The position numbers and the translations under genes are program-made. DNA of 64,000 nt from a bacterium (GTDB lineage Bacteria; Patescibacteriota; Minisyncoccia; Minisyncoccales; CG1-02-41-26), in assembly GCA_030603395.1 (NCBI GenBank), contig JAUVXX010000003.1, positions 30,645 to 94,644 on the forward strand, given 5' to 3'. This document shows, in pieces, positions 14,722 to 64,000 of this stretch (the stretch's first letter is position 1; every line of letters begins with the position of its first letter). The notes under the pieces were generated by a model, which saw only the letters and a list, made by a program, of their open reading frames with translations, was not told where the DNA came from and searched no databases.

Positions 14722-15381
14722 ATGAAAAAAAATATCTCATCCATTATAGGCATAGTCATAATCTTGGCAATTTCAATCCCGATTATTCTTTATCTTATTG
14801 GATTGATACCTCCTTTTTGGGCGGGTGAAGCTCCGGTTGTGCCCGAACTTTCAGAAGAAGAGAAATGCCAACTAATTGAAAATCAAGAAGAAAGAGACAT
14901 TTGTTATGTAAAATTAGCTATTAAAACAAACGACACCCTAATTTGTGATAAAATCAATAATACTATAAATAAAGACCAATGCCATGCTGTTGTTGCTATG
15001 ACTCTGAATGATTCCTTGCTCTGCGAAAAAATTTCAGAAAAAGAGATATTAGATATATGTAATGCTGTTACTTTGAGAGATGTTAGTTTATGCGACAAGA
15101 TTGTAGACAATGCGTTGAAGAGCACCTGTTATATGGGCTTAGCTTTTTTTTCTGAAGATCCTTCGGTCTGTAGTAAATTTTCTGAAGATAATCCTTCAAT
15201 CATCTGTAATGCTCTTGCTTCAAAAAACCCTCTATTATGTGAGGATTTAGAAGAAAAAGATGGGTGTTATTTAACCATTGCCCCGATGCTAAAAGATATT
15301 TCCGTATGCGACAATATTACCGATGAAGGACATAAAGAACAGTGCCGTTTATTAGTTAAAGAATGGCAAAATGGAAAATAA
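14722..15381 (+). CDS. Membrane-anchored protein made of Cys-x(n)-Cys tandem repeats
   Basis: N-terminal TM segment, then about 8 repeats of roughly 25-30 aa of the form D/N-x-x-x-C-x(7-12)-C (ICDKINNT..C, LCEKISEK..C, LCDKIVDN..C, VCSKFSED..C, LCEDLEEK..C, VCDNITDE..C). Confidence 0.55.
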   Translation: MKKNISSIIGIVIILAISIPIILYLIGLIPPFWAGEAPVVPELSEEEKCQLIENQEERDICYVKLAIKTNDTLICDKINNTINKDQCHAVVAMTLNDSLLCEKISEKEILDICNAVTLRDVSLCDKIVDNALKSTCYMGLAFFSEDPSVCSKFSEDNPSIICNALASKNPLLCEDLEEKDGCYLTIAPMLKDISVCDNITDEGHKEQCRLLVKEWQNGK

Positions 15382-17401
15382 GAAATTAATTCTCATAATC
15401 GTAATATTCACAGCAATTTTTCTTGCGAGTTTTTTATTTGAGGCAAGACCTGTAAATGCAGGAGGTGTTTGTCTGGATTCTCCAAGCGGATGGTGTTGTT
15501 CAATTTCAGGGTCTCTTGGGAGATGGTATGCTTGCACTGATAATTGGTGCAACCCGCCTGGTTGCACGTATTCTTGTTCTGGGAATGATCGTATAGGTCA
15601 TTGTTACGCTCAAGCCTGGTGGTTTTTTTGTTGGGACTTCAATTGTTCCAGAACGGTTGATCACTGTGGTTCTGATGGCTGGACAGGTGAATACAGATGT
15701 TCAGGTGATTGGAGGCAAAGAAAATATGTGAGTAGAGGCTGTTCAGGAAACAATTGTTACGAAACACCTGACTGGAGAAATGAGCATTATTGTCCTGATG
15801 GCTGGTACGGAGTTCCGGCCGAAGGCCCGATTGGGGAATATGTCTGTGAAGGGGGCTGGTTAAAAGAGAAGTACGTAGATTGGTGGTGTCAGGGAGCGGG
15901 CGAATGCAAATGGAGCTCATATTTTCAAAACAAAGAATACTGTGATGACGATTATTGCGACTCCTGGCAGTATTATTGTAAAAACAGCAGCACCAGATGC
16001 AGAAAAAAAACCTGTCACGATGAAAAATGCTCAACCAGCGGCTATTGCTATTGGAATGATTACACCGACGGCCCCTATTGCGACAGCTGCGGCACCGACA
16101 CCTCCTGCTCATATACCTCCTGTTCAGACGACAATACCCGACAAGGAACCTGGAAAGATTATTATTGCTCGGGAACCTCTTGTGGCGTCTCCACTAAAAC
16201 CTGCTACAGCGACTGTTCTTATCCCCAATGTTGTTTAAATGGCAGTTGTAAATCAGCCGGAACCTGCAACGGAAGTAAAATATGCTCCGGGAGCAGCTGG
16301 ATAAACCATTGCGGAGACGGTGCCTGCAACTGTGGCGAAACAGTGTCTACCTGTCCCAGTGATTGCGATACTTCTCCTCCGACCATTACCTTCAATCCCA
16401 CCTCCCGTTCCTGGTCCAACACCAGCGCCAACGTTATTGTTACCGCTTCTGACCCTTCGGGAATCTCTGTCACCTACTACTGCTGGACCACTGGCAGCAG
16501 TTGTTCACCAAGCGCTTCCTTTAGCAACGGAGCCACCCTGACGCAATCCTCTAATGGCAGCTGGAATCTCTGCATCAAAGCCAGAGATAATGCTAACAAT
16601 GAAACCACTAACTGCTCCGGGCGATACCAGATAGATAAAACTATCCCCACTGTCACCTCCTTTAAGGTTGACGGACATACCTCTGACTTCACTGTCATTA
16701 ATGACACCAGTTTCACCATCAGTTGGGCAATCTCTGACAGCGGCGGTTCCAACCTTTCCCGGGTGGAAGTCTGGCGTAAGACAGATGGTGGGAGTTGGAC
16801 AAAAGTCCATACAGAAGACGCTGCTGGCAGTTCCAGCTCCGGTTCTTGGGCTAACTCAGTTTCTTGCGGACACACTTATCAATATGGTCTCCATGTGCTT
16901 GATGTGGCTGGCAACATGGGTCTGGAGCCCTCAACTATTACTGGTACCAATGATTGTTGCACTCCCATCCCCCACGCTGATTATAAATGTTACAACAATG
17001 ATGTTTATTGGTATGATTCCTGCGGCAACCTGGAGGAGCTCAAGCAGGACTGCCAGGTAAGTTGTTTTTCAATCCGTAATCCTCCGTCAAATTTGAGCTG
17101 TGAAAAGAAAACTTATATCTGTCCATCCGGGGAAAAGGCGTGTGGTTATCCATTACAAACATGCGGCTATGAGGCCTCCGGACTTATTTGTGAGTGTAAT
17201 GAGGACGAGGGAACAAAAACAAAAATTTGTGATGGAGCAGGAGGTTGTAATGTTATATCACCAGTGTGTGATACGATTTGTGGCGCTGGCGCTGAATGTC
17301 AAGGTCTTGAGTCAGGAGATGCTTACCCTGGAGACCCTTTCAGGAAATGCTGTAAAGGGCAAGCAGGTTTGCCCAAATGGAGAGAGGTAGTGCCCTATTA
17401 A
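15371..17401 (+). CDS. Large secreted hyper-cysteine protein with central Ig/Fn3-like region
   Basis: 676 aa with a signal peptide. The N-terminal ~300 aa is very Cys-rich (not counted) and has internal repeats (DGWTGEYRCSGDW..KYV / GEYVCEGGW..KYV). A CGDGACNCGETVSTCPSDC motif is present. The middle region is beta-rich (TIPTVTSFKVDG...), and the C-terminus is again Cys-rich. Confidence 0.6.
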   Translation: MENKKLILIIVIFTAIFLASFLFEARPVNAGGVCLDSPSGWCCSISGSLGRWYACTDNWCNPPGCTYSCSGNDRIGHCYAQAWWFFCWDFNCSRTVDHCGSDGWTGEYRCSGDWRQRKYVSRGCSGNNCYETPDWRNEHYCPDGWYGVPAEGPIGEYVCEGGWLKEKYVDWWCQGAGECKWSSYFQNKEYCDDDYCDSWQYYCKNSSTRCRKKTCHDEKCSTSGYCYWNDYTDGPYCDSCGTDTSCSYTSCSDDNTRQGTWKDYYCSGTSCGVSTKTCYSDCSYPQCCLNGSCKSAGTCNGSKICSGSSWINHCGDGACNCGETVSTCPSDCDTSPPTITFNPTSRSWSNTSANVIVTASDPSGISVTYYCWTTGSSCSPSASFSNGATLTQSSNGSWNLCIKARDNANNETTNCSGRYQIDKTIPTVTSFKVDGHTSDFTVINDTSFTISWAISDSGGSNLSRVEVWRKTDGGSWTKVHTEDAAGSSSSGSWANSVSCGHTYQYGLHVLDVAGNMGLEPSTITGTNDCCTPIPHADYKCYNNDVYWYDSCGNLEELKQDCQVSCFSIRNPPSNLSCEKKTYICPSGEKACGYPLQTCGYEASGLICECNEDEGTKTKICDGAGGCNVISPVCDTICGAGAECQGLESGDAYPGDPFRKCCKGQAGLPKWREVVPY

Positions 17402-54103: not shown

Positions 54104-54976
54104 ATGATTCCTTTACCCAAACCACCAAAAGTCATTCAAAAAAAAGGCAACACAGCCATCTTTGAAATTGAAGCCCTTTATCCCGGCTATGGGGTAAGCA
54201 TGGGTAACAGTTTGCGCAGGATATTGCTTTCTTCTCTTGAGGGAGCTGCCATCACTCAGGTTAAGATTAAGGGAGTAAGTCACGAGTTCTCAACTTTGCC
54301 AGGAGTTTTTGAAGATGTTATCATTATTCTGCTTAATTTGAAAAAATTGAGTTTCAAGATGTTTACTTCAGAACCCCAGACAATTGTTCTCAGAGAAAAA
54401 GGACAAAAAGAAGTTAAAGCCAAGAATTTCAAATTGTCTCCACAGGTGGAACTTACCACCCCCGAAGCTCATATCGCCGCCCTAACCAGTAAAAAAGCAG
54501 AGCTCAATCTGGAAGCTCAAATCGAGCAGGGAGTTGGCTATTCTCCCACCGAAGAAAGAGAACAGAAAAAAGCTGAGGTAGGAGTGATTCCGATAGATGC
54601 CATTTTCACCCCTGTTAAAAAGGTGAGTTTTCATGTAGAAAATATGAGGGTAGGGAAAAGGACCGACTTCGATAGATTAAAGCTCGAGATTGAAACCGAT
54701 GGAACCATCTCTCCTGAAGAGGCTTTGAGAGAGAGTTCAGAGATTCTTCTCAATCACTTTTCATTGTTTTCACAAGAAATTGGCAAAAAAATATCAGGGA
54801 AAGAAAAGAAAAAGAAAAAGAAACCCGTCGCCTCCACCCCCGCTAAAGCTAAGGCTGGCAAGAAAATTAAGACAGGCAAGAAAGAAAAGACGAAAAAACA
54901 AGCAGAAAAAAAGAAAACCCCTAAAAAAGCAGCTAAAAGTTATGAGAAAAAGAAAACAAGGAAAAAAGTTTCATAG
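54104..54976 (+). CDS. rpoA: RNA polymerase alpha subunit: N-terminal domain only, followed by a 65-aa Lys/Ala/Pro-rich tail
   Basis: The NTD motifs GYGVSMGNSLRRILLSS and VIPIDAIFTPVKKVSFHVENMRVGKRTDFDRL are present. After about aa 225 the sequence is KKISGKEKKKKKKPVASTPAKAKAGKK..., and no HhH alpha-CTD can be recognised. Confidence 0.85.
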   Translation: MIPLPKPPKVIQKKGNTAIFEIEALYPGYGVSMGNSLRRILLSSLEGAAITQVKIKGVSHEFSTLPGVFEDVIIILLNLKKLSFKMFTSEPQTIVLREKGQKEVKAKNFKLSPQVELTTPEAHIAALTSKKAELNLEAQIEQGVGYSPTEEREQKKAEVGVIPIDAIFTPVKKVSFHVENMRVGKRTDFDRLKLEIETDGTISPEEALRESSEILLNHFSLFSQEIGKKISGKEKKKKKKPVASTPAKAKAGKKIKTGKKEKTKKQAEKKKTPKKAAKSYEKKKTRKKVS

Positions 54977-55292
54977 GACAAAAGACCGGAGAAAGGCGTT
55001 GATTAGAGGATTGGCTGAAGAACTTTTTAAAAGAGGAAAGATTAAAACCACCGAAACTAAAGCAAAAACCCTTAAAAGATTTGCTGAAAAATTTTTGACC
55101 AGAGCCCAAAAAGGAGATCTGGCTGCCAGACGTTATTTGGCTCGTTCTTTTTCAAAGAAATTAACCAAAAAAATAGTTGATGAAATTGCTCCAAGATTTA
55201 AAGAAAGAAAAGGCGGCTATACCAGAATTGTCAAATTGGAACCAAGAAAGTCGGATGGAGCCAAGATGGCCATCATTGAATTATTAAAATGA
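54942..55292 (+). CDS. rplQ: Ribosomal protein L17
   Basis: [28 protein letters not shown]. The start lies inside the rpoA tail in another frame, giving a 35-nt overlap. Confidence 0.9.
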
Positions 55293-55636
55293 AACGTCAG
55301 ACTCACACTATTGATGCTGCTAATAAACCTCTGGGAAGATTGGCTACTCAAATCGCCACTCTTTTGCGAGGAAAACATAAACCGGATTTTATACCCTACC
55401 AAGACGTAGGGGATTTCGTTGTAGTGACAAATATAAATAAAATAAAAGTAACTGGTAAAAAAATGAAACAGAAAATATATTATCATTATTCAGGTTTCCC
55501 GGGGGGTCTTAAAAAAATACCCATGGAGACCCTTTTCAAAAAAAATCCCCAGGAGGTTTTAAAAAAAGCGGTTTGGGGAATGCTGCCCAAGAATAAATTA
55601 AGACCAAAAATGATAAAACGGCTTCAATTTAAGTAA
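55289..55636 (+). CDS. rplM: Ribosomal protein L13
   Basis: [25 protein letters not shown]. Confidence 0.95.
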
Positions 55637-55638
55637 TC

Positions 55639-56130
55639 ATGGTTAAAACTAAAAAAACAACTAAGAAAAAAACCAAACTAGCCAAAAAAAAGGTAGAAAA
55701 AAAGGTAAAGAAAATTCCCGAGAAGAAAGTAGAGAAAAAGGCAAAATATTTTGAAGCAGTAGGCAGGCGGAAGACAGCTACGGCTAGAGTTCGGCTTTTT
55801 ACCCAGGGAGAGAAGGGGATGACCGTAAACAATAAATCCTACAAAGTTTATTTTCCCATATTCTCTTTGCAAAAAACCGTGAAAGAAGCTTTGGAGGAGA
55901 TAAAATGGCAGGATAAGTTTAGAATTTCAGTTGTCGTCAAGGGGGGAGGTTTAAGTGGCCAGGCCGAAGCCATTCGTCACGGCATTGCCAGAGCCCTGGT
56001 TGTCCTTAATCCTGATTTTAGGAAGAGATTGAGAAAACTCGGTTTTCTTACCCGCGACCCCCGCATGAGAGAGAGGAAGAAATTTGGCTTAAAACGTGCC
56101 CGCCGTGGCCCCCAGTGGTCAAAACGATAA
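55639..56130 (+). CDS. rpsI: Ribosomal protein S9 (Lys-rich N-terminal extension)
   Basis: AVGRRKTATARVRLF...GGGLSGQAEAIRHGIARAL...KKFGLKRARR. Confidence 0.95.
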   Translation: MVKTKKTTKKKTKLAKKKVEKKVKKIPEKKVEKKAKYFEAVGRRKTATARVRLFTQGEKGMTVNNKSYKVYFPIFSLQKTVKEALEEIKWQDKFRISVVVKGGGLSGQAEAIRHGIARALVVLNPDFRKRLRKLGFLTRDPRMRERKKFGLKRARRGPQWSKR

Positions 56131-56148
56131 AGTAGCACTCCGCAGACA

Positions 56149-56180
56149 CCCGCCAGTTCTAAATGAACTGGCGGGTTTTT
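56149..56180 (+). terminator. Rho-independent terminator ending the ribosomal operon
   Basis: 11-bp perfect stem cccgccagttc/gaactggcggg with a 5-nt loop and a T5 run. Confidence 0.8.
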
Positions 56181-56194
56181 CATTATATCAGTTA

Positions 56195-56240
56195 GCCACT
56201 GACTCTGGGGGTTTGGGATAATGTCCTCAGAGTGAGTGGC
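56195..56240. repeat. Inverted repeat at the left edge of the G+C-richer block
   Basis: gccactgactctg (56195-56207) and cagagtgagtggc (56228-56240) match 12/13 as reverse complements. Confidence 0.6.
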
Positions 56241-56252
56241 GAACCACTCAAT

Positions 56253-56262
56253 AAAGGCCGCA
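56253..56262 (+). promoter_or_regulatory. AAAGGYCGR-type motif copy (aaaggccgca)
   Basis: 52 nt upstream of the ATG at 56305. Confidence 0.4.
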
Positions 56263-56304
56263 AGACGGAAAACTTGTAAAAACCAACTTAAAGAAAGAGA
56301 AATC

Positions 56305-56481
56305 ATGGAAACACTAAAGCAAGTTGCTCTCTGCACAGCTGGGATATCCGTAGCGATAGTAGCCGCCCACGTCTTCATCCTGCTCTTTATGATCATCGGA
56401 ATAATGATCGGGTCCGACCAGATCCAGCACACTCCCTATTGGGATGGCCTGCTAAGAGCCGTGATTAATCTCCTGAACTAA
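56305..56481 (+). CDS. Small hypothetical membrane protein
   Basis: METLKQVALCTAGISVAIVAAHVFILLFMIIGIMIG... has two hydrophobic segments. Start taken at the internal ATG of the 81-aa ORF. Confidence 0.4.
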   Translation: METLKQVALCTAGISVAIVAAHVFILLFMIIGIMIGSDQIQHTPYWDGLLRAVINLLN

Positions 56482-56482
56482 C

Positions 56483-56602
56483 ATGGATGAATCAATAGAA
56501 AAAACAGAGGTCGAAGAAGTCCAGGGAGAAGGCTACCGGCAGGAGCAAACAGAAAAAGAAGAGAAGGAAAGATTAGACAACTTTGATTTCTCAGAGCTAT
56601 GA
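56483..56602 (+). CDS. Possible 39-aa acidic peptide
   Basis: Own translation: MDESIEKTEVEEVQGEGYRQEQTEKEEKERLDNFDFSEL. Its stop overlaps the next start codon (ATGA). Confidence 0.3.
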   Translation: MDESIEKTEVEEVQGEGYRQEQTEKEEKERLDNFDFSEL

Positions 56603-57438
56603 ATAAAGCAAAGGTAAAATCCACAAGCAACAAGAAGATTACCCAGATCACATTGCCAGATGAAAGATTCTATGAGAAAGGTGGTAAATACTACCCGGCA
56701 GTAAACTACATCCTGCAGGCCTATCCGAAGAACATCGGCTTCTACAAATGGCTGGCCTCAAAAGGCTGGGATGAAGCGGAGAGGATCAAGGAGGAAGCAG
56801 GAGACCGAGGAAGCAAAGTCCACAATGCCATCTACGATTTACTGAAAGGCAAGCCAGTAAAGTACACTGACAAATACTGGAACGAGAACACCAAAGACTT
56901 TGAGATGCTAACCGACAGGGAATGGGAATGCCTGATCGCCTTCCAAAACTTCTGGGAAGACAAAAAACCTCAGCTGATCGCCTCAGAGATAGTCTGCTAC
57001 TCAGAAAAATATTTTTATGCTGGTACGATTGACTTCATCGGAATAGTAGACGGGAAAGTGATGCTGATTGACTGGAAGACCGGCTCGAAGATCTACCCCT
57101 CACAGCTGCTCCAGGTGGCCGCTTACTGGCAAGCCGAGAACGAGAAAGGGAAGTTCAAACCAGCCGAGACTGCGGTGCTGAGATTAGGCACCAAGCACAC
57201 CAGAGGATACGAACCACTGAAGAAGAGCGGAAAGGGAAAGAGAGGCAATCTGATGAATCTGAAAGAAAACAAAGAGGCCTTCAGTGTGTTCTTGGCGGTC
57301 AAAAAGACATGGGGATTCGAACATCCGAAAGCAAAGCCTGACATAAAAGAAATTCCAGAGGTGATTAAATTGAAGATCGTTAAACTAAGAAAAAAACATG
57401 GCATCACAACCAAACGAGGAACTAAGCGTAATAGGTAA
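56599..57438 (+). CDS. PD-(D/E)XK (RecB/Cas4-like) nuclease
   Basis: YAGTIDFIG (motif II Asp), MLIDWKTG (D-x-K) and QLLQVAAY (QxxxY). No Fe-S cysteines. Confidence 0.7.
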   Translation: MNKAKVKSTSNKKITQITLPDERFYEKGGKYYPAVNYILQAYPKNIGFYKWLASKGWDEAERIKEEAGDRGSKVHNAIYDLLKGKPVKYTDKYWNENTKDFEMLTDREWECLIAFQNFWEDKKPQLIASEIVCYSEKYFYAGTIDFIGIVDGKVMLIDWKTGSKIYPSQLLQVAAYWQAENEKGKFKPAETAVLRLGTKHTRGYEPLKKSGKGKRGNLMNLKENKEAFSVFLAVKKTWGFEHPKAKPDIKEIPEVIKLKIVKLRKKHGITTKRGTKRNR

Positions 57439-57829
57439 AATCGATAGCGTCAACCCGGTTAAGACAGGGACCACAACAAGAGACGGCAGGACCTTCGACT
57501 GGACCCTTTATGACGTAAAGATCGATGGAGTGAACTACCGAACCTTCGATGATCGCTACCAGAAACTGGTAGGCCAATCAGGAGAATGGAAATTTAAGAT
57601 AGACAACCGGCAGGGAAGAGACGGGAAGTGGTACGAGAACAGGAACCTGCTTAATCTCCCGAGACCGGGCGCAGGCGGAATGTCACCAGAACAGGAAAAG
57701 AAAATCCACGATAAGTTAGACAAGATTATCGGTATGCTCGAGCAACCCCAAGCAGACAAGCCAGGAGACTTCGAAGTAGAGACAGGACCAGAGCATGGAC
57801 CTGTCCCGGGTCCACCAGAAGAGTACTAA
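57398..57829 (+). CDS. Hypothetical protein (possible OB-fold/ssDNA-binding; disordered acidic C-terminus)
   Basis: Beta-rich N-terminal 90 aa, then a Pro/Gly/Glu-rich tail ending PPEEY. The function is a guess. Confidence 0.3.
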   Translation: MASQPNEELSVIGKIDSVNPVKTGTTTRDGRTFDWTLYDVKIDGVNYRTFDDRYQKLVGQSGEWKFKIDNRQGRDGKWYENRNLLNLPRPGAGGMSPEQEKKIHDKLDKIIGMLEQPQADKPGDFEVETGPEHGPVPGPPEEY

Positions 57830-57926
57830 GCCCCTGACCCTGCCTCTTGCCTCTCTCACCCTTGTAAGATCACCGTAGGGGCATGATCCGAGAAGAGGGA
57901 GAGGCAGAGATTAGAGGCTAAAAAAT

Positions 57927-58475
57927 ATGACAAAAAAACTATCATTTAGCTTCCTGCCAATACCAGAGGAGTTAATGGGAAGCAAAGCGATCAGCTGGGG
58001 AGCAAAATATCTATTCGGGATCATAGCAAAGGCAAACAAGGAGAAAATTAGATGGAGTGTAAAATATTTAGCAAAGAGAATGGACTGCACCCCAAGAGAA
58101 ACGAGTCGCAGAGTGAAGGAATTAAAAGAAAACAATCTCATTATTGTCAAAGGAAGAAAGGGAAGGGTTAACGAGTACATCGTGAACCTTGAACTCATTC
58201 AGTCTATACAGACCCCTGACCAATCGGTCGGGGGTCAGGAGAGCCAAAATTGTCATGAGACCCCCGACCGTAGCGGTCAGGGGAGTCCTACCGGGAACGG
58301 TCAGGGTAATAGTAAAGAACACTCTTTAAAGAAAACTATTAAAGACGTAAAGCGTTTAAAAAAATATCACGGATTACGAGGAAAACTCGTGGAAAAGAAA
58401 ATCTGGCTCACTCCTCTTAGAAGAACAAAGGTCCAGGAGGAAGTGGGCGCCCAATTAAGACCCAGCGGAAAATAA
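57927..58475 (+). CDS. Winged-helix DNA-binding protein (replication-initiator/regulator-like)
   Basis: WSVKYLAKRMDCTPRETSRRVKELKENNLIIVKGRKGRVNEY fits an HTH plus wing pattern. The C-terminus is low-complexity. Confidence 0.5.
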   Translation: MTKKLSFSFLPIPEELMGSKAISWGAKYLFGIIAKANKEKIRWSVKYLAKRMDCTPRETSRRVKELKENNLIIVKGRKGRVNEYIVNLELIQSIQTPDQSVGGQESQNCHETPDRSGQGSPTGNGQGNSKEHSLKKTIKDVKRLKKYHGLRGKLVEKKIWLTPLRRTKVQEEVGAQLRPSGK

Positions 58476-58476
58476 C

Positions 58477-58803
58477 ATGGCACAAGACCTTCAAAAAATC
58501 CAAGACAACGTGAGGCTGCTCTTGACGAAGCACGCAGCCTTGAGGGGTCCGTTTAGAAGGAAGCAGGCCCACATTCAGTACTGGCTGGACAACAATGAGA
58601 TAGGGAAGTTTATAGCAAATACTTTGATGAAGGAATACCCCTACTGGACTTCAGCCGAAAGCATCAGCCGGGCCATCAGGGCAATACAGGATCCCAAGAA
58701 CAGAAACTACGATCCAAATCTAAAGCCCTTGCCCGAGTTAGAGCAAAAGAGATTTGAGATGGCTGATGACAACAGAAGATTTAATTCAAAGGTCGGGCAG
58801 TAA
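58477..58803 (+). CDS. Hypothetical protein
   Basis: 108-aa ORF tightly packed between its neighbours. No motif recognised. Confidence 0.45.
   Translation: MAQDLQKIQDNVRLLLTKHAALRGPFRRKQAHIQYWLDNNEIGKFIANTLMKEYPYWTSAESISRAIRAIQDPKNRNYDPNLKPLPELEQKRFEMADDNRRFNSKVGQ
58788..58797 (+). promoter_or_regulatory. AAAGGYCGR motif copy (aaaggtcggg)
   Basis: 29 nt upstream of the ATG at 58817, followed by gtaaagaataaa. Confidence 0.45.
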
Positions 58804-58816
58804 AGAATAAAGAAAC

Positions 58817-59671
58817 ATGAAACTGAAATCAGGAAAATGGCAACCACAAGAGAAAACAGGCGAACTAATCCGACAAGTCCAACAAATCCTTGATAGCTAT
58901 TCAGTGGCTCTGACCATCAGGCAGGTTTTTTATCAACTGGTGGTAAAGCAGATCATCCCGAACAACCTCAACTCCTATAAGAATTTAGATGCTGTTCTTT
59001 CCAAAGCTCGCAAGAATGGTTATCTGGACTTCGATGCTTTTACCGATAGGAAGAGAAGACCAATTAAAGACGGCTCTTGGTCAAATTTGAATGATTTTAT
59101 CTCAACAGTTAAGAGGTCTTACTCTAAAGACAAATGGGACAACCAGGAGAACTATGTAGAGGTTTGGCTGGAGAAAGATGCTTTAGCTGGAATCTTTGAA
59201 CCTATCACGCAAAAGTATGATGTCAATTTGCTTCTTGGCTACGGCTACCAAAGTTTGAGCTCCTTGAATGATGCGGTATCACGATTCCCCGATAAAGACA
59301 TCTACATTCTTTATTTTGGGGACTTCGATCCTACCGGCCTCGACATTCCCAGGAGTGCCGAAGAGAACTTGGTGAAATGTTTTGGGAATTCTCCAATTTT
59401 TAAGAGAATATCTTTGACCAAAAAAGATATTGATAAGTTTGAATTACCACCAGCACCAGCTAAAACCACCGACAGCCGAACTTATGCTTTTGTCAAGGAA
59501 CATGGAAACATAGCGGTTGAACTGGATGCCTTGCCCCCCAATGTTTTAGAGAAAAAGATAGAGAAAAGCATAGAGAAGTATCTTGACTTTGAGCAACTTG
59601 AAAAGGATTTAAGGGTTGAAAAAAGAGAAAGAGATAAACTTAGAATCAAACTTGAAAAATTGAAATTCTAA
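58817..59671 (+). CDS. Spo11/topoisomerase VI subunit A-like protein (5Y-CAP plus Toprim only; 'Topo mini-A'-like)
   Basis: ALTIRQVFYQLV parallels the catalytic-Tyr motif RDIFY/RDIYY of Spo11/Top6A. VEVWLEKDAL carries the Toprim Glu, and ILYFGDFDPTGLDI carries the Toprim DxD. The protein is 284 aa, and no GHKL/B-subunit gene lies nearby. Confidence 0.7.
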   Translation: MKLKSGKWQPQEKTGELIRQVQQILDSYSVALTIRQVFYQLVVKQIIPNNLNSYKNLDAVLSKARKNGYLDFDAFTDRKRRPIKDGSWSNLNDFISTVKRSYSKDKWDNQENYVEVWLEKDALAGIFEPITQKYDVNLLLGYGYQSLSSLNDAVSRFPDKDIYILYFGDFDPTGLDIPRSAEENLVKCFGNSPIFKRISLTKKDIDKFELPPAPAKTTDSRTYAFVKEHGNIAVELDALPPNVLEKKIEKSIEKYLDFEQLEKDLRVEKRERDKLRIKLEKLKF

Positions 59672-59674
59672 ACC

Positions 59675-59684
59675 AAAGGCCGGG
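59675..59684 (+). promoter_or_regulatory. AAAGGYCGR motif copy (aaaggccggg)
   Basis: 27 nt upstream of the ATG at 59702. Preceded by aaattctaaa, as in the next copy. Confidence 0.45.
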
Positions 59685-59701
59685 ATAAAAAATAAAACAA
59701 C

Positions 59702-59893
59702 ATGATGAATTTAAACCAAGCCATAGTATTCGCCATCTTGATGGAGAACCACGAGGGGATCCTCGGGAAATCCCAGGCATACATAAAAGAGAAAGTGAGG
59801 TCAGTTGAATCGATGGAGTTCCCAGAACGTTTGCTCGAGCATGACAGTCATGAGAAGTTTAGAAAGTGGCACGAGAGATGGAATAAAAATTAA
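59702..59893 (+). CDS. Hypothetical small protein
   Basis: 63-aa ORF. Confidence 0.4.
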   Translation: MMNLNQAIVFAILMENHEGILGKSQAYIKEKVRSVESMEFPERLLEHDSHEKFRKWHERWNKN

Positions 59894-59904
59894 AATTCTA
59901 AATA

Positions 59905-59914
59905 AAAGGTCGAG
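59905..59914 (+). promoter_or_regulatory. AAAGGYCGR motif copy (aaaggtcgag)
   Basis: 34 nt upstream of the ATG at 59939, followed by gtaaagaataaa. Confidence 0.45.
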
Positions 59915-59938
59915 AGTAAAGAATAAAATAAAAGCACC

Positions 59939-61327
59939 ATGGAGTTACAATTAATCAACATTTCATCCGCATACGAATCGGAGACGAACCCCCGTGATAA
60001 AAAGGACTTCGAGGGCCCGGCCTTCGATGACCTGGTGGCGAGCATAAAAGAGAAAGGAGTGATAGTGCCGGTGCTGGCTCGTAGGAGAAAAAAAGACGCA
60101 AAGGAATTTGAGATTATCGTAGGATCGAGAAGATTAAAAGCGGCCAGAGTTGCTGGACTTTTGGATATCCCAGCGAAGATCGTGGAGATGGGTGATGTGG
60201 AGGCGAGGGAGGTGCAGATTATCGAGAACCTGCAACGCAAGGATGTCCACCCCTTAGACGAGGGTTTTGGTTATCGACAGCTAATAGAGAAATCAGATTA
60301 TGACGTAGAGAACCTCGCAATCAAAGTGGGCAAACCCCAGGGCTATATCCGCCAGCGTCTATTCCTGACGAACCTGACCGAGAGACCGGCCAACGCCTAC
60401 CGCAAAGGAGAGATTGCTGACGGACACGCCGTTCTTGTCGCCAGGCTCTCTCCACTTGATCAGTCCAATGCAATGAGATACCTGAGAGACTCATTCTCTT
60501 TGCCATCAGTCAAACAGTTCAAGGAATGGATTGAAGAAGAGTTTTATCATCCGCTTGCTTTCCAGCCATGGCTCAAAGACAAAGAAGCTAATAAGGCAGT
60601 CGGAAAATGTATTGAATGCTCGCCGAACTTAAACACTTTATTTGGTGAAGTCAAAGAAGGATCATGCACCGATCTGAAATGCTGGAAGAGAAAGATGGGG
60701 AGATACATACTTCACCAGATCGCCAAGTCCAGAAAGCAGGGAGTCGAATTGTTAAAAGTGAGCAAGGAGTATGGTTCAGCTGGACCCGAGATTCTTTCAG
60801 CCAATGCTTACACATCGGTCAGCTTCAAGAAAAAAGACCGGTGCAAATATGCCCAGAAGGCGATAGTGGCTGCAGGATCAGACTTGGGAACGTTCCTGTG
60901 GGTCTGTATCAGTTCCGAATGTCCTAAGCATCAGGTTGACCATGGCGATTATACTCCAACCCCGAAGGAAAAAGAGCGGAGGAGAAAAGAAATAAAGGAA
61001 CAAAAGACCAAGAGAGAGAAGGAAGAGAAAAGAATTGTGGAATCCCTGGAAAAAGTCAAGTGGCCGCTTACCGGGAAGAACTTAGACATCATATTTGAGA
61101 TAGTTTTGAACGAGCAGGGAACCACCGTACTCAGACCGGTAGCCAAGAGGTTTAAGATATCGCCAAAGAAAAAAACAAGATGCGGCTCCACTTATTATGA
61201 TTGGGAGGATTCCATTCGGGAGGCGTCAGAGGGAATGGACAATGCTGAAAAGCTGAGGTTCATCATCGGGATTTTACTCGAGAGAACGTGGGGCGATTTG
61301 AAGAACAAGATACTGAAAATGTTCTAA
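59939..61327 (+). CDS. ParB/Srx-fold N-terminal domain protein with Cys-rich middle region and charged C-terminus
   Basis: VPVLARRR...FEIIVGSRRLKAARVAGL...IENLQRKDVHPLDEG is a ParB-box (GxRRxxAA) domain. Cys clusters follow: CIECSP...CTDLKC and CKYAQ...CISSECPKH. Confidence 0.7.
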   Translation: MELQLINISSAYESETNPRDKKDFEGPAFDDLVASIKEKGVIVPVLARRRKKDAKEFEIIVGSRRLKAARVAGLLDIPAKIVEMGDVEAREVQIIENLQRKDVHPLDEGFGYRQLIEKSDYDVENLAIKVGKPQGYIRQRLFLTNLTERPANAYRKGEIADGHAVLVARLSPLDQSNAMRYLRDSFSLPSVKQFKEWIEEEFYHPLAFQPWLKDKEANKAVGKCIECSPNLNTLFGEVKEGSCTDLKCWKRKMGRYILHQIAKSRKQGVELLKVSKEYGSAGPEILSANAYTSVSFKKKDRCKYAQKAIVAAGSDLGTFLWVCISSECPKHQVDHGDYTPTPKEKERRRKEIKEQKTKREKEEKRIVESLEKVKWPLTGKNLDIIFEIVLNEQGTTVLRPVAKRFKISPKKKTRCGSTYYDWEDSIREASEGMDNAEKLRFIIGILLERTWGDLKNKILKMF

Positions 61328-61343
61328 CGAAGAAGAAGAGATA

Positions 61344-61353
61344 AAAGGTCGAA
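61344..61353 (+). promoter_or_regulatory. AAAGGYCGR motif copy (aaaggtcgaa)
   Basis: 37 nt upstream of the ATG at 61381. Confidence 0.45.
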
Positions 61354-61380
61354 AAAGATAATTCACAAACAAAAGTAATC

Positions 61381-61713
61381 ATGGAAAAAGATCAGGAATT
61401 GTTGGAGGCAATTCTAAAAGCAATCGTCTATAAACCAGAAGAAGTGAAGGTTGAGAGAAAGGTAGATGAGATGGGAGTGTTACTCTCAGTAAAGCTCGGA
61501 GAAGGAGATGCCGGTCCCGTAATCGGAAAGGAAGGAGGAACCATCCAAGCCATCCGAACCGTGATGAGAGTGGTAGGAGCGAAGGGCAAAGCCAGAATTA
61601 CCATCAAGTTAGAAGTTCCAGAAAAAAAGCCATCCTTCACAGCTCCACCACTCACCAGTCCACCCGCTGGCCAGAAGAAAGAGAAGGGAGATCTGGAAGA
61701 CCTGAAGCTTTAA
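61381..61713 (+). CDS. KH-domain RNA-binding protein (KhpA/YlqC-like) with Pro-rich C-terminal extension
   Basis: LLEAILKAIVYKPEEVKV...GPVIGKEGGTIQAIRTVMRVV (GxxG loop)...RITIKLEV. Confidence 0.7.
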   Translation: MEKDQELLEAILKAIVYKPEEVKVERKVDEMGVLLSVKLGEGDAGPVIGKEGGTIQAIRTVMRVVGAKGKARITIKLEVPEKKPSFTAPPLTSPPAGQKKEKGDLEDLKL

Positions 61714-61763
61714 TCAGAAATTCAGATTGAAGATTATTTTGAAGATTCTCCCTGGCCGCTTCG

Positions 61764-61790
61764 GAAACGGTCGATTCCTCTCGACCTTTC
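61764..61790 (+). repeat. Palindrome built from the motif and its complement (gaaacggtcga-ttcctc-tcgacctttc)
   Basis: Read directly. Contains the reverse-complement copy ctcgaccttt at 61780-61789. Confidence 0.5.
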
Positions 61791-61851
61791 AAAAATAAAC
61801 AAGGAGGAAAATAACGAGGCGGCCCGGGGAATCGAAAACAAAAAAAGAACC

Positions 61852-61861
61852 AAAGGTCGAG
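61852..61861 (+). promoter_or_regulatory. AAAGGYCGR motif copy (aaaggtcgag)
   Basis: 39 nt upstream of the ATG at 61891. Confidence 0.45.
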
Positions 61862-61890
61862 TTAAATTCTTAACCATCAAACACAAAACA

Positions 61891-62013
61891 ATGAAAAAAG
61901 AAGAAAAAGAAGAAATAAAAGATTGTCCAAAATGTGGCGGAGAAAGGGGAAGAAAGCTAATAGGAGATGAAAGTTATGATTGGTGTGATGAGTGTGGTGT
62001 GGTTGAAAATTAA
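61891..62013 (+). CDS. 40-aa zinc-ribbon peptide
   Basis: Own translation: MKKEEKEEIKDCPKCGGERGRKLIGDESYDWCDECGVVEN (CxxC...CxxC). Confidence 0.45.
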   Translation: MKKEEKEEIKDCPKCGGERGRKLIGDESYDWCDECGVVEN

Positions 62014-62026
62014 CAAAACAAAAACA

Positions 62027-62164
62027 ATGCCAATAAATAAATTAGTCGGCGAAGAAGAGGGCGGCGAAGAGGAAGGCGGAGAAGAAAAGGAAGAGAAAGA
62101 GGGCGGAGAAGAGAAGGAAGAGAAGGAAGGAGGCGAAGAGAAAGAAGAAGAGGAAGAGGTATAA
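62027..62164 (+). CDS. 45-aa poly-Glu/Gly acidic repeat peptide
   Basis: MPINKLVGEEEGGEEEGGEEKEEKEGGEEKEEKEGGEEKEEEEEV. It is encoded by a ~115-nt purine-rich stretch (almost all G/A, with a few C in ggcgg units), so coding status is uncertain. Confidence 0.35.
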   Translation: MPINKLVGEEEGGEEEGGEEKEEKEGGEEKEEKEGGEEKEEEEEV

Positions 62165-62170
62165 AGATTA

Positions 62171-62287
62171 GGCGGGCTCTGGTTAGAAAAGCCAGAGGAA
62201 ATATCGGGAAGGGTTTTTATAACTTACCCCTCATTTGTCCGCAGACAATTCCCCGTTCCCGAGGGTCTGGTCTGTGCCCGCCGAACC
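62171..62287 (+). ncRNA. Candidate structured RNA domain directly upstream of the tRNA-like element
   Basis: ggcgggc (62171-62177) pairs perfectly with gcccgcc (62276-62282). Enclosed hairpins are ctctgg/ccagag, gaagggt/acccctc and ttgtc-cgca-gacaa. Confidence 0.3.
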
Positions 62288-62368
62288 GGGGCGGTAGTTG
62301 AGTAGGAACAACGTAGATCGATACATAAGGTCCTATCTAAGGCGCAGGTTCGAATCCTGCCCGCTCCA
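62288..62368 (+). ncRNA. tRNA-like element with alanine-identity acceptor stem and aberrant 16-nt 'anticodon' loop
   Basis: Manual fold. Acceptor ggggcgg/ccgctcc includes G3:U70, with discriminator A. D-arm gttg-agtaggaa-caac; T-arm gcagg-ttcgaat-cctgc; 4-nt variable region. The anticodon stem tagat/atcta encloses cgatacataaggtcct. No U33 or anticodon register can be placed, and cta rather than cca follows. Confidence 0.55.
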
Positions 62369-62370
62369 CT

Positions 62371-62865
62371 ATGTGTGCACCAGTACCAAAAGGCAGATGG
62401 GCTTGGAAATACGACAAGTGCATTATCTGTGATACCAGGAAGATAAGGCATAAAGGCCGGGGACTTTGCGTTCATTGCTGGGACAGGAGGAGGGGCCAGA
62501 ACCCGAGGAGAAAAGAACGACAGAAAAGAAGGCACGAGAAGTTTTATTTAAAAGTCAAGGGAACTCCAGAATACAGAGAATCTTGCCGATTAAAAGTAAA
62601 GAGATGGAGAGAAGATGAAAACTCAGGGTATAAATTGTTTCTTCAAAAAGTATATTTAAGAAATAAATTCAAAAGATTCCTAAACAGAAAGAGACCCCTA
62701 AAGAGAGATCTGGGCGGAGTTAAAATCAGGTGCGAAGGCTGCGAGAAAGAGTGCTTGATCACGACACCAATTAAACCCGGGAAGCTCAATGGAAAGATAC
62801 AGGAGCTTCAATTATTTAAAAAAGTATTGATAGAAAATTGCGGGCAAAATCCCACTAAGAAATAA
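62371..62865 (+). CDS. Basic Cys-rich (zinc-finger-like) protein
   Basis: CIICD...CVHC and CEGCEKEC motifs, very Arg/Lys-rich. The ATG begins 2 nt after the tRNA-like element. Confidence 0.5.
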   Translation: MCAPVPKGRWAWKYDKCIICDTRKIRHKGRGLCVHCWDRRRGQNPRRKERQKRRHEKFYLKVKGTPEYRESCRLKVKRWREDENSGYKLFLQKVYLRNKFKRFLNRKRPLKRDLGGVKIRCEGCEKECLITTPIKPGKLNGKIQELQLFKKVLIENCGQNPTKK

Positions 62866-62870
62866 AAATT

Positions 62871-62880
62871 AAAGGTTAAG
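62871..62880 (+). promoter_or_regulatory. Degenerate motif copy (aaaggttaag)
   Basis: 24 nt upstream of the ATG at 62895. Confidence 0.3.
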
Positions 62881-62894
62881 CGCTGGAATTAAAG

Positions 62895-64000
62895 ATGGAT
62901 ATTATAAAAAAATTTGAAGAGACCAAGGAAATTGTAGGAAAGGCAGATCGTCGCCTCAGTTCTATGATCAAAGGGCTTCAGGAGTTGCAGGACACCCACC
63001 GGGAGAAACTGGAGCAGGTTTTAGAAGCCTCACGGATATCGCAGTTCAACGAAGAAGAGTTAAAGAATTTTCTGAAAGAACCCTATGTGATTCTACCCAC
63101 CAAGAGGCCAGATGAGTGGTGGGTGGTGGTCCCGAAGTTCATCCAGATGCAGGTCGGTTGGCTGGAAAGAAGCACCGAGTCCTACAACATTTTCAAGGTC
63201 AACAAGTTTATCAACTGGTTCGGGGACATTCCTGCCTTGCTAAAAGATAAGTTCAAATTCAAGCCAGAGCTGCCGGTGAAGGTCTACGACGGAATGGTGC
63301 TGACAGGGAAACGATATCAAGATGAAACCTGGAACAGATACAGCAGATTCCTTTCCAGGAGAGAAGGCGAAGACAGGATCAGAATTAAGAGAGGAGCGGA
63401 GTTCAGGCTGATCGCACAGATAATTGACGATGGCACTTTGCCGTTCTTGCCAAAAGAAGTTGAGAAAGGGGATCTACGGCCGGCCCAAGTAAAGTTCAAG
63501 TTGAGAGAGTATCAAGAGGAAGCCCGGCAGATGTTTCTAAAATACGGAGCAATAGGAGTTTATTGGGCCTACTCGGCAGGCAAAACCTATTTAGGACTTG
63601 ATCTCTGTTCTGAATTAAAGGGAGATAAACTGATCGTAGTGCCGACTTTAACCTTGAAAGAGCAATGGGAAAAGAGATTGAGCGAACTGACTGAAGTTGC
63701 CAACGAGGTAGACGTAATAACTTATCATAGCTTTGAGAAAGTAAGAAAGAATGAATATGTTTTGGCGATCTATGACGAGTGCCATCACTTGCCAGCCAAT
63801 ACATTTTCAAGATTGTCAACCATCAGGGCCAAATATAGATTAGGGCTTTCAGCTACACCTTACAGGGAAGACGGCCGAACAGATTATATCTTCGCATTAA
63901 CGGGATTCCCGGTAGGACTGAACTGGGAGGCCCTGATAAAGTTGGGAGTGATTGAGAAGCCAGATATTCGGCTTTACATCTTACAGGATAGTAGAGCCAA
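62895..64000 (+). CDS. SF2 DEAH-box helicase, XPB/Rad25-like, with an uncharacterised ~190-aa N-terminal domain (3' end outside the window)
   Basis: Own translation: MDIIKKFEETKEIVGKADRR...LREYQEEARQMF...VYWAYSAGKTYLG (Walker A)...AIYDECHHLPAN (DEAH/DECH)...LGLSATPYRED (motif III). It is absent from the ORF track because it is open at the window edge. Confidence 0.75.
   Translation, partial: MDIIKKFEETKEIVGKADRRLSSMIKGLQELQDTHREKLEQVLEASRISQFNEEELKNFLKEPYVILPTKRPDEWWVVVPKFIQMQVGWLERSTESYNIFKVNKFINWFGDIPALLKDKFKFKPELPVKVYDGMVLTGKRYQDETWNRYSRFLSRREGEDRIRIKRGAEFRLIAQIIDDGTLPFLPKEVEKGDLRPAQVKFKLREYQEEARQMFLKYGAIGVYWAYSAGKTYLGLDLCSELKGDKLIVVPTLTLKEQWEKRLSELTEVANEVDVITYHSFEKVRKNEYVLAIYDECHHLPANTFSRLSTIRAKYRLGLSATPYREDGRTDYIFALTGFPVGLNWEALIKLGVIEKPDIRLYILQDSRA

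Follow-up and report, generated by a model that had tools for sequence, protein, structure and literature searches.

A probable temperate phage at the 3' end of rpsI in a candidate phyla radiation bacterium

RESULTS

What lies behind rpsI, the gene for ribosomal protein S9, in this bacterium: native chromosome or DNA that came in from elsewhere? The question is raised by a stretch of 64,000 nucleotides (nt) of contig JAUVXX010000003.1 (here called the window), the last part of which, from position 56185 to the end (the block), had been taken in a preliminary description for a mobile element, possibly the replication/maintenance arm of an episome or prophage of the candidate phyla radiation (CPR). 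Our analysis upheld the insertion, through an empty site in relatives and a hybrid junction, and refined its nature: very probably, a temperate phage has entered the last 18 bases of rpsI by site-specific recombination, and the block is its left (early-gene) arm.

The higher G+C content that had been judged by eye was borne out by computation, with 44.5% in 56185-64000 versus 39.1% in 1-56184, and the block was the richest of all 7.8-kb windows. It was also the strongest tetranucleotide outlier of the window. Using a strand-symmetrised profile, its correlation with the rest was 0.863, compared to 0.95 to 0.99 for every other window.

An empty site in related genomes

We collected 80 metagenomic loci with related rpsI genes and added, via a protein search, four much closer loci (L094 to L097), whose G+C content (38 to 40%) resembles that of the host part of the window (39.1%). 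The closest one, L097, had 94.5% DNA identity to positions 54892-56130, and the similarity ended exactly at the rpsI stop codon. It ended at the same point in the other close relatives, at nucleotide identities of 88.8% (L096) and 86 to 88% (L094 and L095). In all four, a gene for a Cas4-like PD-(D/E)XK nuclease of ca. 228 amino acids (aa) begins 2 to 37 nt 3' of rpsI, and the same order was found in ca. 38 of 47 more distant relatives whose sequence extends far enough beyond rpsI. The nuclease gene is followed in the relatives by a minus-strand PEGA-domain gene and later by genes of the major facilitator superfamily (MFS) and MreB. None of these four genes (nuclease, PEGA, MFS, and MreB) was found anywhere in the window, and no homologue of a block protein was found in any of the 80 rpsI loci or in L094 to L097. 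Since close relatives keep the nuclease gene directly after rpsI and lose similarity to the window at the rpsI stop codon, the block is an insertion. The preliminary description had named a block conserved in synteny after rpsI, with no deviation in composition, as the mark of core DNA; we found a different gene order at this place and a clear deviation in both G+C content and tetranucleotides.

In the relatives, the gap between rpsI and the Cas4-like nuclease gene is often just 2 nt with no terminator (e.g., L003:4796-5575 and L096:765-1457), and the nuclease gene looks like a core CPR gene that is co-transcribed with the alpha operon.

The junction within rpsI

The other side of the junction came from contig L102 (6.1 kb), which holds the closest homologue of the block exonuclease described below (87% aa identity) and has a G+C content (44.1%) resembling that of the block. 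It matched window positions 56110-57930 with 85% nucleotide identity, and the match started inside the end of rpsI. A three-way alignment of the window with L097 (host) and L102 (phage) gave the following features and segment identities:

56113..56130, plus strand: attachment (att) core, the crossover region of attL, CAGTGGTCAAAACGATAA, comprising the last five codons and the stop codon of rpsI
56148..56176, plus strand: intrinsic terminator hairpin of 12 bp, 8 of them G-C, followed by a T-run; found in L102 and absent from the empty-site relatives L095 to L097
56040-56112, left segment: window versus L097, 91.8% identity; window versus L102, 35.6%
56113-56130, core segment: window versus L097, 17/18; window versus L102, 17/18
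56131-56320, right segment: window versus L097, 24.7% identity; window versus L102, 92.6%

The core follows the pattern CAGTGGTC(A/G)AAACGATAA. As the window matches the host to the left of the core and the phage to its right, the junction is an attL, in which, judging from the alignment, L097 would represent attB and L102 would represent attP, the latter between the integrase gene and the early genes. The window holds a single copy of the core, and therefore attR must lie beyond position 64000.

The core encodes the C-terminal residues QWSKR of S9 plus the stop codon, and rpsI ends at 56130. Upstream of the core, too, the phage copy mimics the S9 C-terminus (SRKAPQWSKR versus RRGPQWSKR). Because the phage attP brings along its own version of the final rpsI codons, stop codon included, S9 stays intact. 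The hairpin directly behind the gene had been described as the rpsI terminator, with the boundary of the element placed after it, at 56185. That boundary has to be moved into the last 18 nt of rpsI, since the hairpin is present in L102 and absent at the empty sites and is thus phage DNA. It comes from the phage P' arm and may now terminate the alpha operon. No arm-type repeats were noticed near attL; only the terminator hairpin stood out.

In L102, the region 5' of the core encodes an endolysin, of which the C-terminal part is present (phrog_435, 1e-15; 52% identity to its Amidase_3 counterpart in contig L104), a 70-aa membrane protein with a holin-like character, a 292-aa tyrosine recombinase, and a 53-aa open reading frame (ORF). 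The recombinase gene (800-1678) matched PF00589 and phrog_1 (1e-38) and is Xer-like in NCBIfam; the core lies at 1983-2000. In this contig, an 85%-identical relative and not this exact phage, attP thus adjoins the integrase gene, and the order late genes, int, attP, early genes appears to be that of a non-integrated temperate phage. Three of the checks suggested in the preliminary description turned out in favour of its reading: the empty site, the deviating composition, and an att structure, the junction being a hybrid of a host attB and a phage attP beside an integrase gene. The window itself contained one copy of the core and no integrase.

Beyond the match at the junction, L102 shares with the block the 63-aa ORF, the KH gene, and the tRNA-like RNA, and all ORFs common to both are intact in the window. 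Compared with L102, the window element has two extra cassettes (Mini-A and ParB), and the initiators share only their C-terminal 32 aa. These differences are ordinary phage mosaicism.

Genes of the visible arm

The block contains 14 plus-strand ORFs and one tRNA-like RNA with minimal spacing. The tight packing had been described correctly; the count of at least 16 ORFs had been too high. The features, all on the plus strand, are as follows:

56305..56481, plus strand (alternative start GTG 56236): 58-aa hydrophobic (transmembrane-like) protein; 79% identical in L102, 57% in L103
56483..56602, plus strand: 39-aa acidic peptide; 74% identical counterpart in L102
56599..57438, plus strand: PD-(D/E)XK (RecB-family) exonuclease; PF12705; phrog_298, 1.3e-36
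57398..57829, plus strand: 143-aa exonuclease partner; beta-rich N-terminal part, helix, and acidic/proline-rich tail ending in Y/F
57927..58475, plus strand: helix-turn-helix (HTH) protein, putative replication initiator with an O/DnaD-like N-terminal domain; phrog_270 (6e-12), phrog_428, phrog_678
58477..58803, plus strand: 108-aa protein; 55% identical counterpart in L102; no family match
58817..59671, plus strand: Mini-A, stand-alone topoisomerase VI-A/Spo11-like 5Y-CAP plus Toprim protein, 284 aa; phrog_6247 "DNA topoisomerase," 1e-71
59702..59893, plus strand: 63-aa protein; 90% identical in L102
59939..61327, plus strand: ParB-family protein with a Cys-rich C-terminal half; ParB_N (PF02195) 2.7e-18, HTH_ParB (PF17762) 7.8e-10
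61381..61713, plus strand: KhpA-like KH-domain RNA-binding protein; PF13083, 4e-16
61891..62013, plus strand: 40-aa CxxC...CxxC zinc-ribbon peptide; Zn_ribbon_8 at 1e-3, below the cut-off
61967..62164, plus strand: 65-aa poly-Glu ORF, coding doubtful; no homologue in family searches or related contigs
62288..62369, plus strand: tRNA-like RNA; Rfam tRNA, 54.9 bits; canonical acceptor, D, and T arms
62371..62865, plus strand: 164-aa basic Cys-rich protein (two CxxC and one CxxCxxxC); 34% identical homologue in L103; no family match
62895..64000, plus strand, running off the window end: XPB/Rad25-like superfamily 2 (SF2) helicase, N-terminal 368 aa; ResIII 5.7e-14; NF045503 XPB 1.5e-24

Family searches confirmed most names given in the preliminary description (exonuclease, HTH protein, Mini-A, ParB, KH protein, tRNA-like RNA, and helicase) and gave only the weak match for the zinc ribbon. 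The exonuclease, initiator, Mini-A, ParB, and helicase also had PHROG matches. The visible ca. 7.9 kb would be a phage recombination, replication, and partition module. Within it, family and PHROG searches found no virion, packaging, or lysis genes, no CI/Cro-type switch was recognisable, and no relaxase or conjugation gene was seen. We also considered a defence system and rejected this candidate, as PADLOC gave partial, generic-domain matches only (the helicase core to PbeA, the Toprim domain to JetD, and a weak Cas4 match) and no complete system.

In the exonuclease, D145, D158-x-K160, and Q172xxxY176 were invariant in 26 homologues; besides the copy in L102, the identities were 72% in L103 and 58% in L098. 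The family was found in 49 IMG/VR contigs, mostly of 20 to 50 kb, which had almost nothing else in common with the block. We also considered that it might be a diverged copy of the Cas4-like nuclease of the relatives; this candidate was rejected, because neither BLASTP nor a profile of 40 syntenic nucleases gave a match. The 143-aa protein comes from a small family, with 54 representatives among 1.8 billion proteins, whose members are encoded directly 3' of the exonuclease gene in L102, L098, and L103 (137 aa in L103). It had no Pfam, PDB, or PHROG match. Its single-sequence AlphaFold2 (AF2) model, of low confidence with a predicted local distance difference test (pLDDT) score of 49.5, showed a b-b-b-a-b-b pattern compatible with an oligonucleotide/oligosaccharide-binding (OB) fold in strand/helix order only, from which one might guess that the protein is possibly like a single-stranded DNA-binding (SSB) or OB-fold protein.

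The putative initiator had an HTH_36 match below the cut-off, and its positional equivalent in L103 is a Phage_rep_O protein. The truncated helicase was ca. 80% identical to full-length helicases of 499 to 506 aa in L001, L098, and L103, which carry ERCC3_RAD25_C, and matched phrog_16 (DNA helicase).

The ParB-family protein reached 114 bits with TIGR00180 (cut-off, 58), and a GSRRLKAA box can be read in its sequence. It was 63% identical to the copy in L098 and 44% identical to one in L002 (IMG/VR), and the cassette is absent from L102. No ParA/Walker ATPase was found among the visible ORFs by family and PHROG searches; the gene encodes a ParB-family protein, not a demonstrated partition system.

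The KH protein is conserved in related elements (76% in L102, 67% in L103, and 55% in L114 from IMG/VR). It was 50% identical to a host-type khpA product (L101:1781-2095) encoded between rpsP and trmD on a Staskawiczbacteria contig, which suggests that this phage group captured a host RNA-binding protein.

The tRNA-like RNA has an anticodon arm of 26 to 28 nt, with 5 bp, an internal loop, 3 bp, and a 7-nt loop without U33. It lacks the anticodon features of a canonical elongator tRNA, and the ARAGORN readings conflict. A transfer-messenger RNA (tmRNA) was considered as well and rejected at 32.7 bits (gathering score, 47), with only the tRNA-like ends covered. The RNA was 90% conserved in L102 (5886-5969), where both flanks have diverged. 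The ATG of the 164-aa ORF stands 2 nt past its 3' end, and no ribosome-binding site fits outside the RNA. One possible role is that of a processing signal for RNase P/Z, which would give a leaderless mRNA; another is that of a decoy for anticodon nucleases.

Homologues of the 58-aa protein, which had no family match, hold the same position in L102 and L103. Coding by the poly-Glu ORF is doubtful because it overlaps the zinc-ribbon ORF.

Mini-A

The protein encoded at 58817..59671 is a member of the Mini-A subfamily, judged by the published hallmarks that its sequence carries. The 5Y-CAP domain has R35-Q-V-F-Y39, which fits RxxY/F, with R35, Q36, and Y39 invariant in 34 homologues, as were the Toprim residues E119 and D169xD171xxG174. 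The C-terminal T2BI box reads A-V-E-L-D-A-L at 233-239 (VELDAL, 234-239), with V234 to A238 invariant. The AF2 model had a pLDDT of 88.3. The best PDB matches were topoisomerase VI-A structures, 1d3y and 2zbk (profile E value of 1.3e-4 for the Toprim region to 1d3y; Foldseek probabilities of 1.0/0.8), with a low global Foldseek TM-score of ca. 0.35. Among the neighbours of Mini-A in the visible block, none matched a GHKL-type B subunit.

Mini-A has been reported from viruses and proviruses only (Takahashi et al. 2019, PMC7671362). The protein described here resembles the published ones in its length (ca. 300 aa), the RxxFY and E...DxDxxG motifs, the ELDAL box, its encoding by a provirus, and the lack of a GHKL B subunit nearby. 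It differs in that the box is VELDAL instead of the published WELDAL, and a CPR host range is not represented in the panel of 23 sequences of that study.

Mini-A is absent from the otherwise collinear L102 (L102:4356-5170 compared), is placed differently in L098 and L001, and has varying neighbours, so that, as far as gene orders tell, it appears to move as a cassette without a constant partner gene. In L098 and L001, it lies close to the XPB-like helicase gene, and in L083 and L100, there is no helicase neighbour. A defined replication module from a CPR prophage provides comparative material on what Mini-A works with.

Related elements

The gene combination of the block, for which the preliminary description had recognised no matching named phage, plasmid, or defence module, recurs in other CPR-associated phage contigs (L098/L104, L102, and L103). 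The contigs L098, L099, and L104 (26 to 38 kb) carry five block homologues in a similar order (exonuclease, 58% identity; 143-aa protein, 42%; ParB, 63%; helicase, 81%; Mini-A, 58%). These are preceded by four ORFs of 442 to 526 aa and an Amidase_3 endolysin and followed by an N6/N4 methyltransferase, a DUF5681 protein, and a large terminase, TerL (phrog_38, 4.7e-31).

In contig L103 (NCBI SDBS01001159.1), the 58-aa protein is followed by the exonuclease (72%), the 137-aa protein, Phage_rep_O, the helicase (82%), and the KH protein (67%), with a homologue of the 164-aa protein farther on. Its first part (L103:1-240) consists of the 3' end of rpmG, with 63% identity to the L33 gene of L101, and a hairpin; the same early genes come next, so that L103 represents a related prophage inserted at a different ribosomal-protein gene.

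In L001, binned as "Candidatus Nealsonbacteria," the helicase gene (79%) adjoins Mini-A (82%), and the contig further carries a virion-protein-like ORF and a beta-helix protein. Mini-A homologues adjoin a tyrosine integrase gene in L083/L084. L100 and L101 represent a "Candidatus Staskawiczbacteria" Mini-A element, which ends with a large serine recombinase in L100 and lies directly 3' of rpmG in L101 (L101:3711-4360). The relatives were binned as Nealsonbacteria, Staskawiczbacteria, or "Patescibacteria group."

Single-protein scans of IMG/VR gave nothing for Mini-A or the exonuclease and only generic SF2-core matches for the helicase, and neither the P'-arm sequence of attL nor the core of the tRNA-like RNA was found in that database.

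Elsewhere in the window, positions 16001-17000 had a G+C content of 49.7% (background, 39%) and a negative GC skew, inside a plus-strand ORF of 676 aa (15371-17401). ARAGORN placed a tRNA-Asp (GTC) at 726-801 on the minus strand, where the Rfam tRNA model was silent at its gathering threshold.

DISCUSSION

In the scenario that we favour, a phage tyrosine integrase, predicted to be encoded outside the window at the far right end of the element, would have recombined attP with attB. The latter would correspond to the last ca. 18 nt of rpsI and the former to a site with the lysis-integrase genes on one side and the early genes on the other. The phage hairpin directly behind the core would end the transcription of the alpha operon and shield the early genes of the prophage. 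Of these early genes, the RecB-family exonuclease and its small conserved partner may act in recombination, the O/DnaD-like HTH initiator in the initiation of replication, and the XPB-like SF2 helicase in unwinding; Mini-A may act in DNA topology or cleavage and ParB in genome segregation or DNA binding. Beyond the right end of the window, we would expect packaging, virion, and lysis genes, the integrase gene, and attR. At the predicted attR, CAGTGGTCRAAACGATAA would recur and lead into TTATCAGCG... and the gene of the Cas4-like nuclease (MLKELIDKFY...).

Several observations weigh against a prophage at this site. Family and PHROG searches of the window ORFs detected no integrase, terminase, or capsid gene in the visible ca. 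7.9 kb, in agreement with the preliminary description, and this part contains neither a repressor gene nor attR, the right end being outside the window; the window alone gives no proof of a complete or inducible element. A blastn search with the whole block gave no DNA-level match in GenBank phage records. The attP and attB sequences come from relatives (85% and 94.5% identical) in other samples rather than from this population. L102 might in principle represent a junction of tandem prophages instead of a free genome, and the part of L098/L104 that was seen contains no integrase.

We nevertheless read the block as a prophage and not as an unclassifiable element, because its relatives carry an endolysin, an integrase, and TerL. 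An integrated element that is non-viral or defective (a phage satellite, an integrative plasmid-like element, or a decayed prophage) and uses the same att site in rpsI is unlikely, although it would fit the presence of early-type genes only and of ParB and an initiator, which are typical of plasmids too. Streptococci have integrative elements that occupy the 3' end of rpsI or rpmG (PMC4701971), and Mini-A occurs in several unrelated integrase-bearing elements; one of them, L083, has a tyrosine integrase, and another, L100, a large serine recombinase. However, in L102, genes for an endolysin and a holin-like protein lie immediately 5' of int and attP, L098/L104 carries TerL, an amidase, and large ORFs of structural size, and the block itself has intact shared ORFs and no visible relaxase or conjugation gene.

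An artefact of assembly, in which a host contig and a free phage genome were joined at the shared 18-nt sequence with no real integration, seems very improbable. The source contig is metagenome assembled, the composition switches abruptly, and host and phage share a core of identical length at the join. However, an 18-nt repeat should be shorter than the usual assembly k-mers, a join exactly at the attB/attP core by an integrase-type attP is the product expected of true integration, and related elements are also joined to host ribosomal-protein genes (L103 and L101, after rpmG). Finally, a native, vertically inherited piece of chromosome that is merely richer in G+C can practically be dismissed. 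Every gene of the block is co-oriented with the flanking operon, KH and PD-(D/E)XK proteins are also core in CPR genomes, and a PD-(D/E)XK gene normally stands 3' of rpsI. Against this, the block is missing from this locus in all close and distant relatives, the empty-site comparison contradicting vertical descent; the profile of the syntenic nuclease does not match the block nuclease, the tetranucleotide signature is an outlier, and the homologues sit in phage contexts.

The 18-nt-resolved junction ties a phage lineage directly to a CPR host and predicts the sequences of attB, attP, and attR. Few CPR prophages with a defined attachment site have been documented, and phage-host links in the CPR/Patescibacteria are scarce and come mostly from CRISPR spacers or binning. 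Related free and integrated genomes (L102, L103, and L098/L104) have now been identified. They might belong to an undescribed temperate phage lineage of Parcubacteria-type CPR bacteria, with ribosomal-gene targeting, early-region cassettes, and a tRNA mimic, a proposal that we make tentatively. In such a lineage, integrases would target the 3' ends of rpsI, as here, and rpmG, as in L103 and the rpmG-adjacent Mini-A element L101; the early region would shuffle Mini-A, the Cys-rich ParB, the XPB-like helicase, and a captured KhpA; and a tRNA mimic with an elongated anticodon arm would abut the next start codon.

Comparison with known systems

The mechanism is an ordinary, textbook one: a tyrosine integrase directs insertion into a conserved gene at its 3' end. 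Temperate phages of the lambdoid type integrate into the 3' end of host genes, e.g., phage 21 into icd, with a replacement 3' end carried in attP. The locus described here resembles them in the hybrid attL, the short identical core, the preservation of the target gene, the deviating composition of the inserted DNA, and the location of attP next to int between the late and early regions (seen here in L102). It differs in having a CPR bacterium as host and a ribosomal-protein gene as target, and the integrase and attR of this copy are outside the view.

The target itself has a parallel in streptococci, in which integrative and conjugative or mobilisable elements (ICEs/IMEs) with tyrosine recombinases occupy the 3' ends of rpsI and rpmG (Ambroset et al. 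2016, PMC4701971). The class of target (the rpsI 3' end and, in L103/L101, rpmG) and the class of integrase are alike. However, those elements are conjugative or mobilisable and reside in Firmicutes, while here we found phage genes and no conjugation genes, and no relationship at the sequence level is implied. Within the CPR, prophages have been reported in small numbers, e.g., one of ca. 27 kb in Roizmanbacteria (Chen et al. 2019, PMC6509639). In both cases, the prophage adjoins core genes of a small CPR genome and was recognised by hallmark genes and comparison with free phages. The one described here differs in its host lineage, in a gene content that includes Mini-A, ParB, an XPB-like helicase, and a KH protein, and in an attachment site that is resolved to 18 nt.

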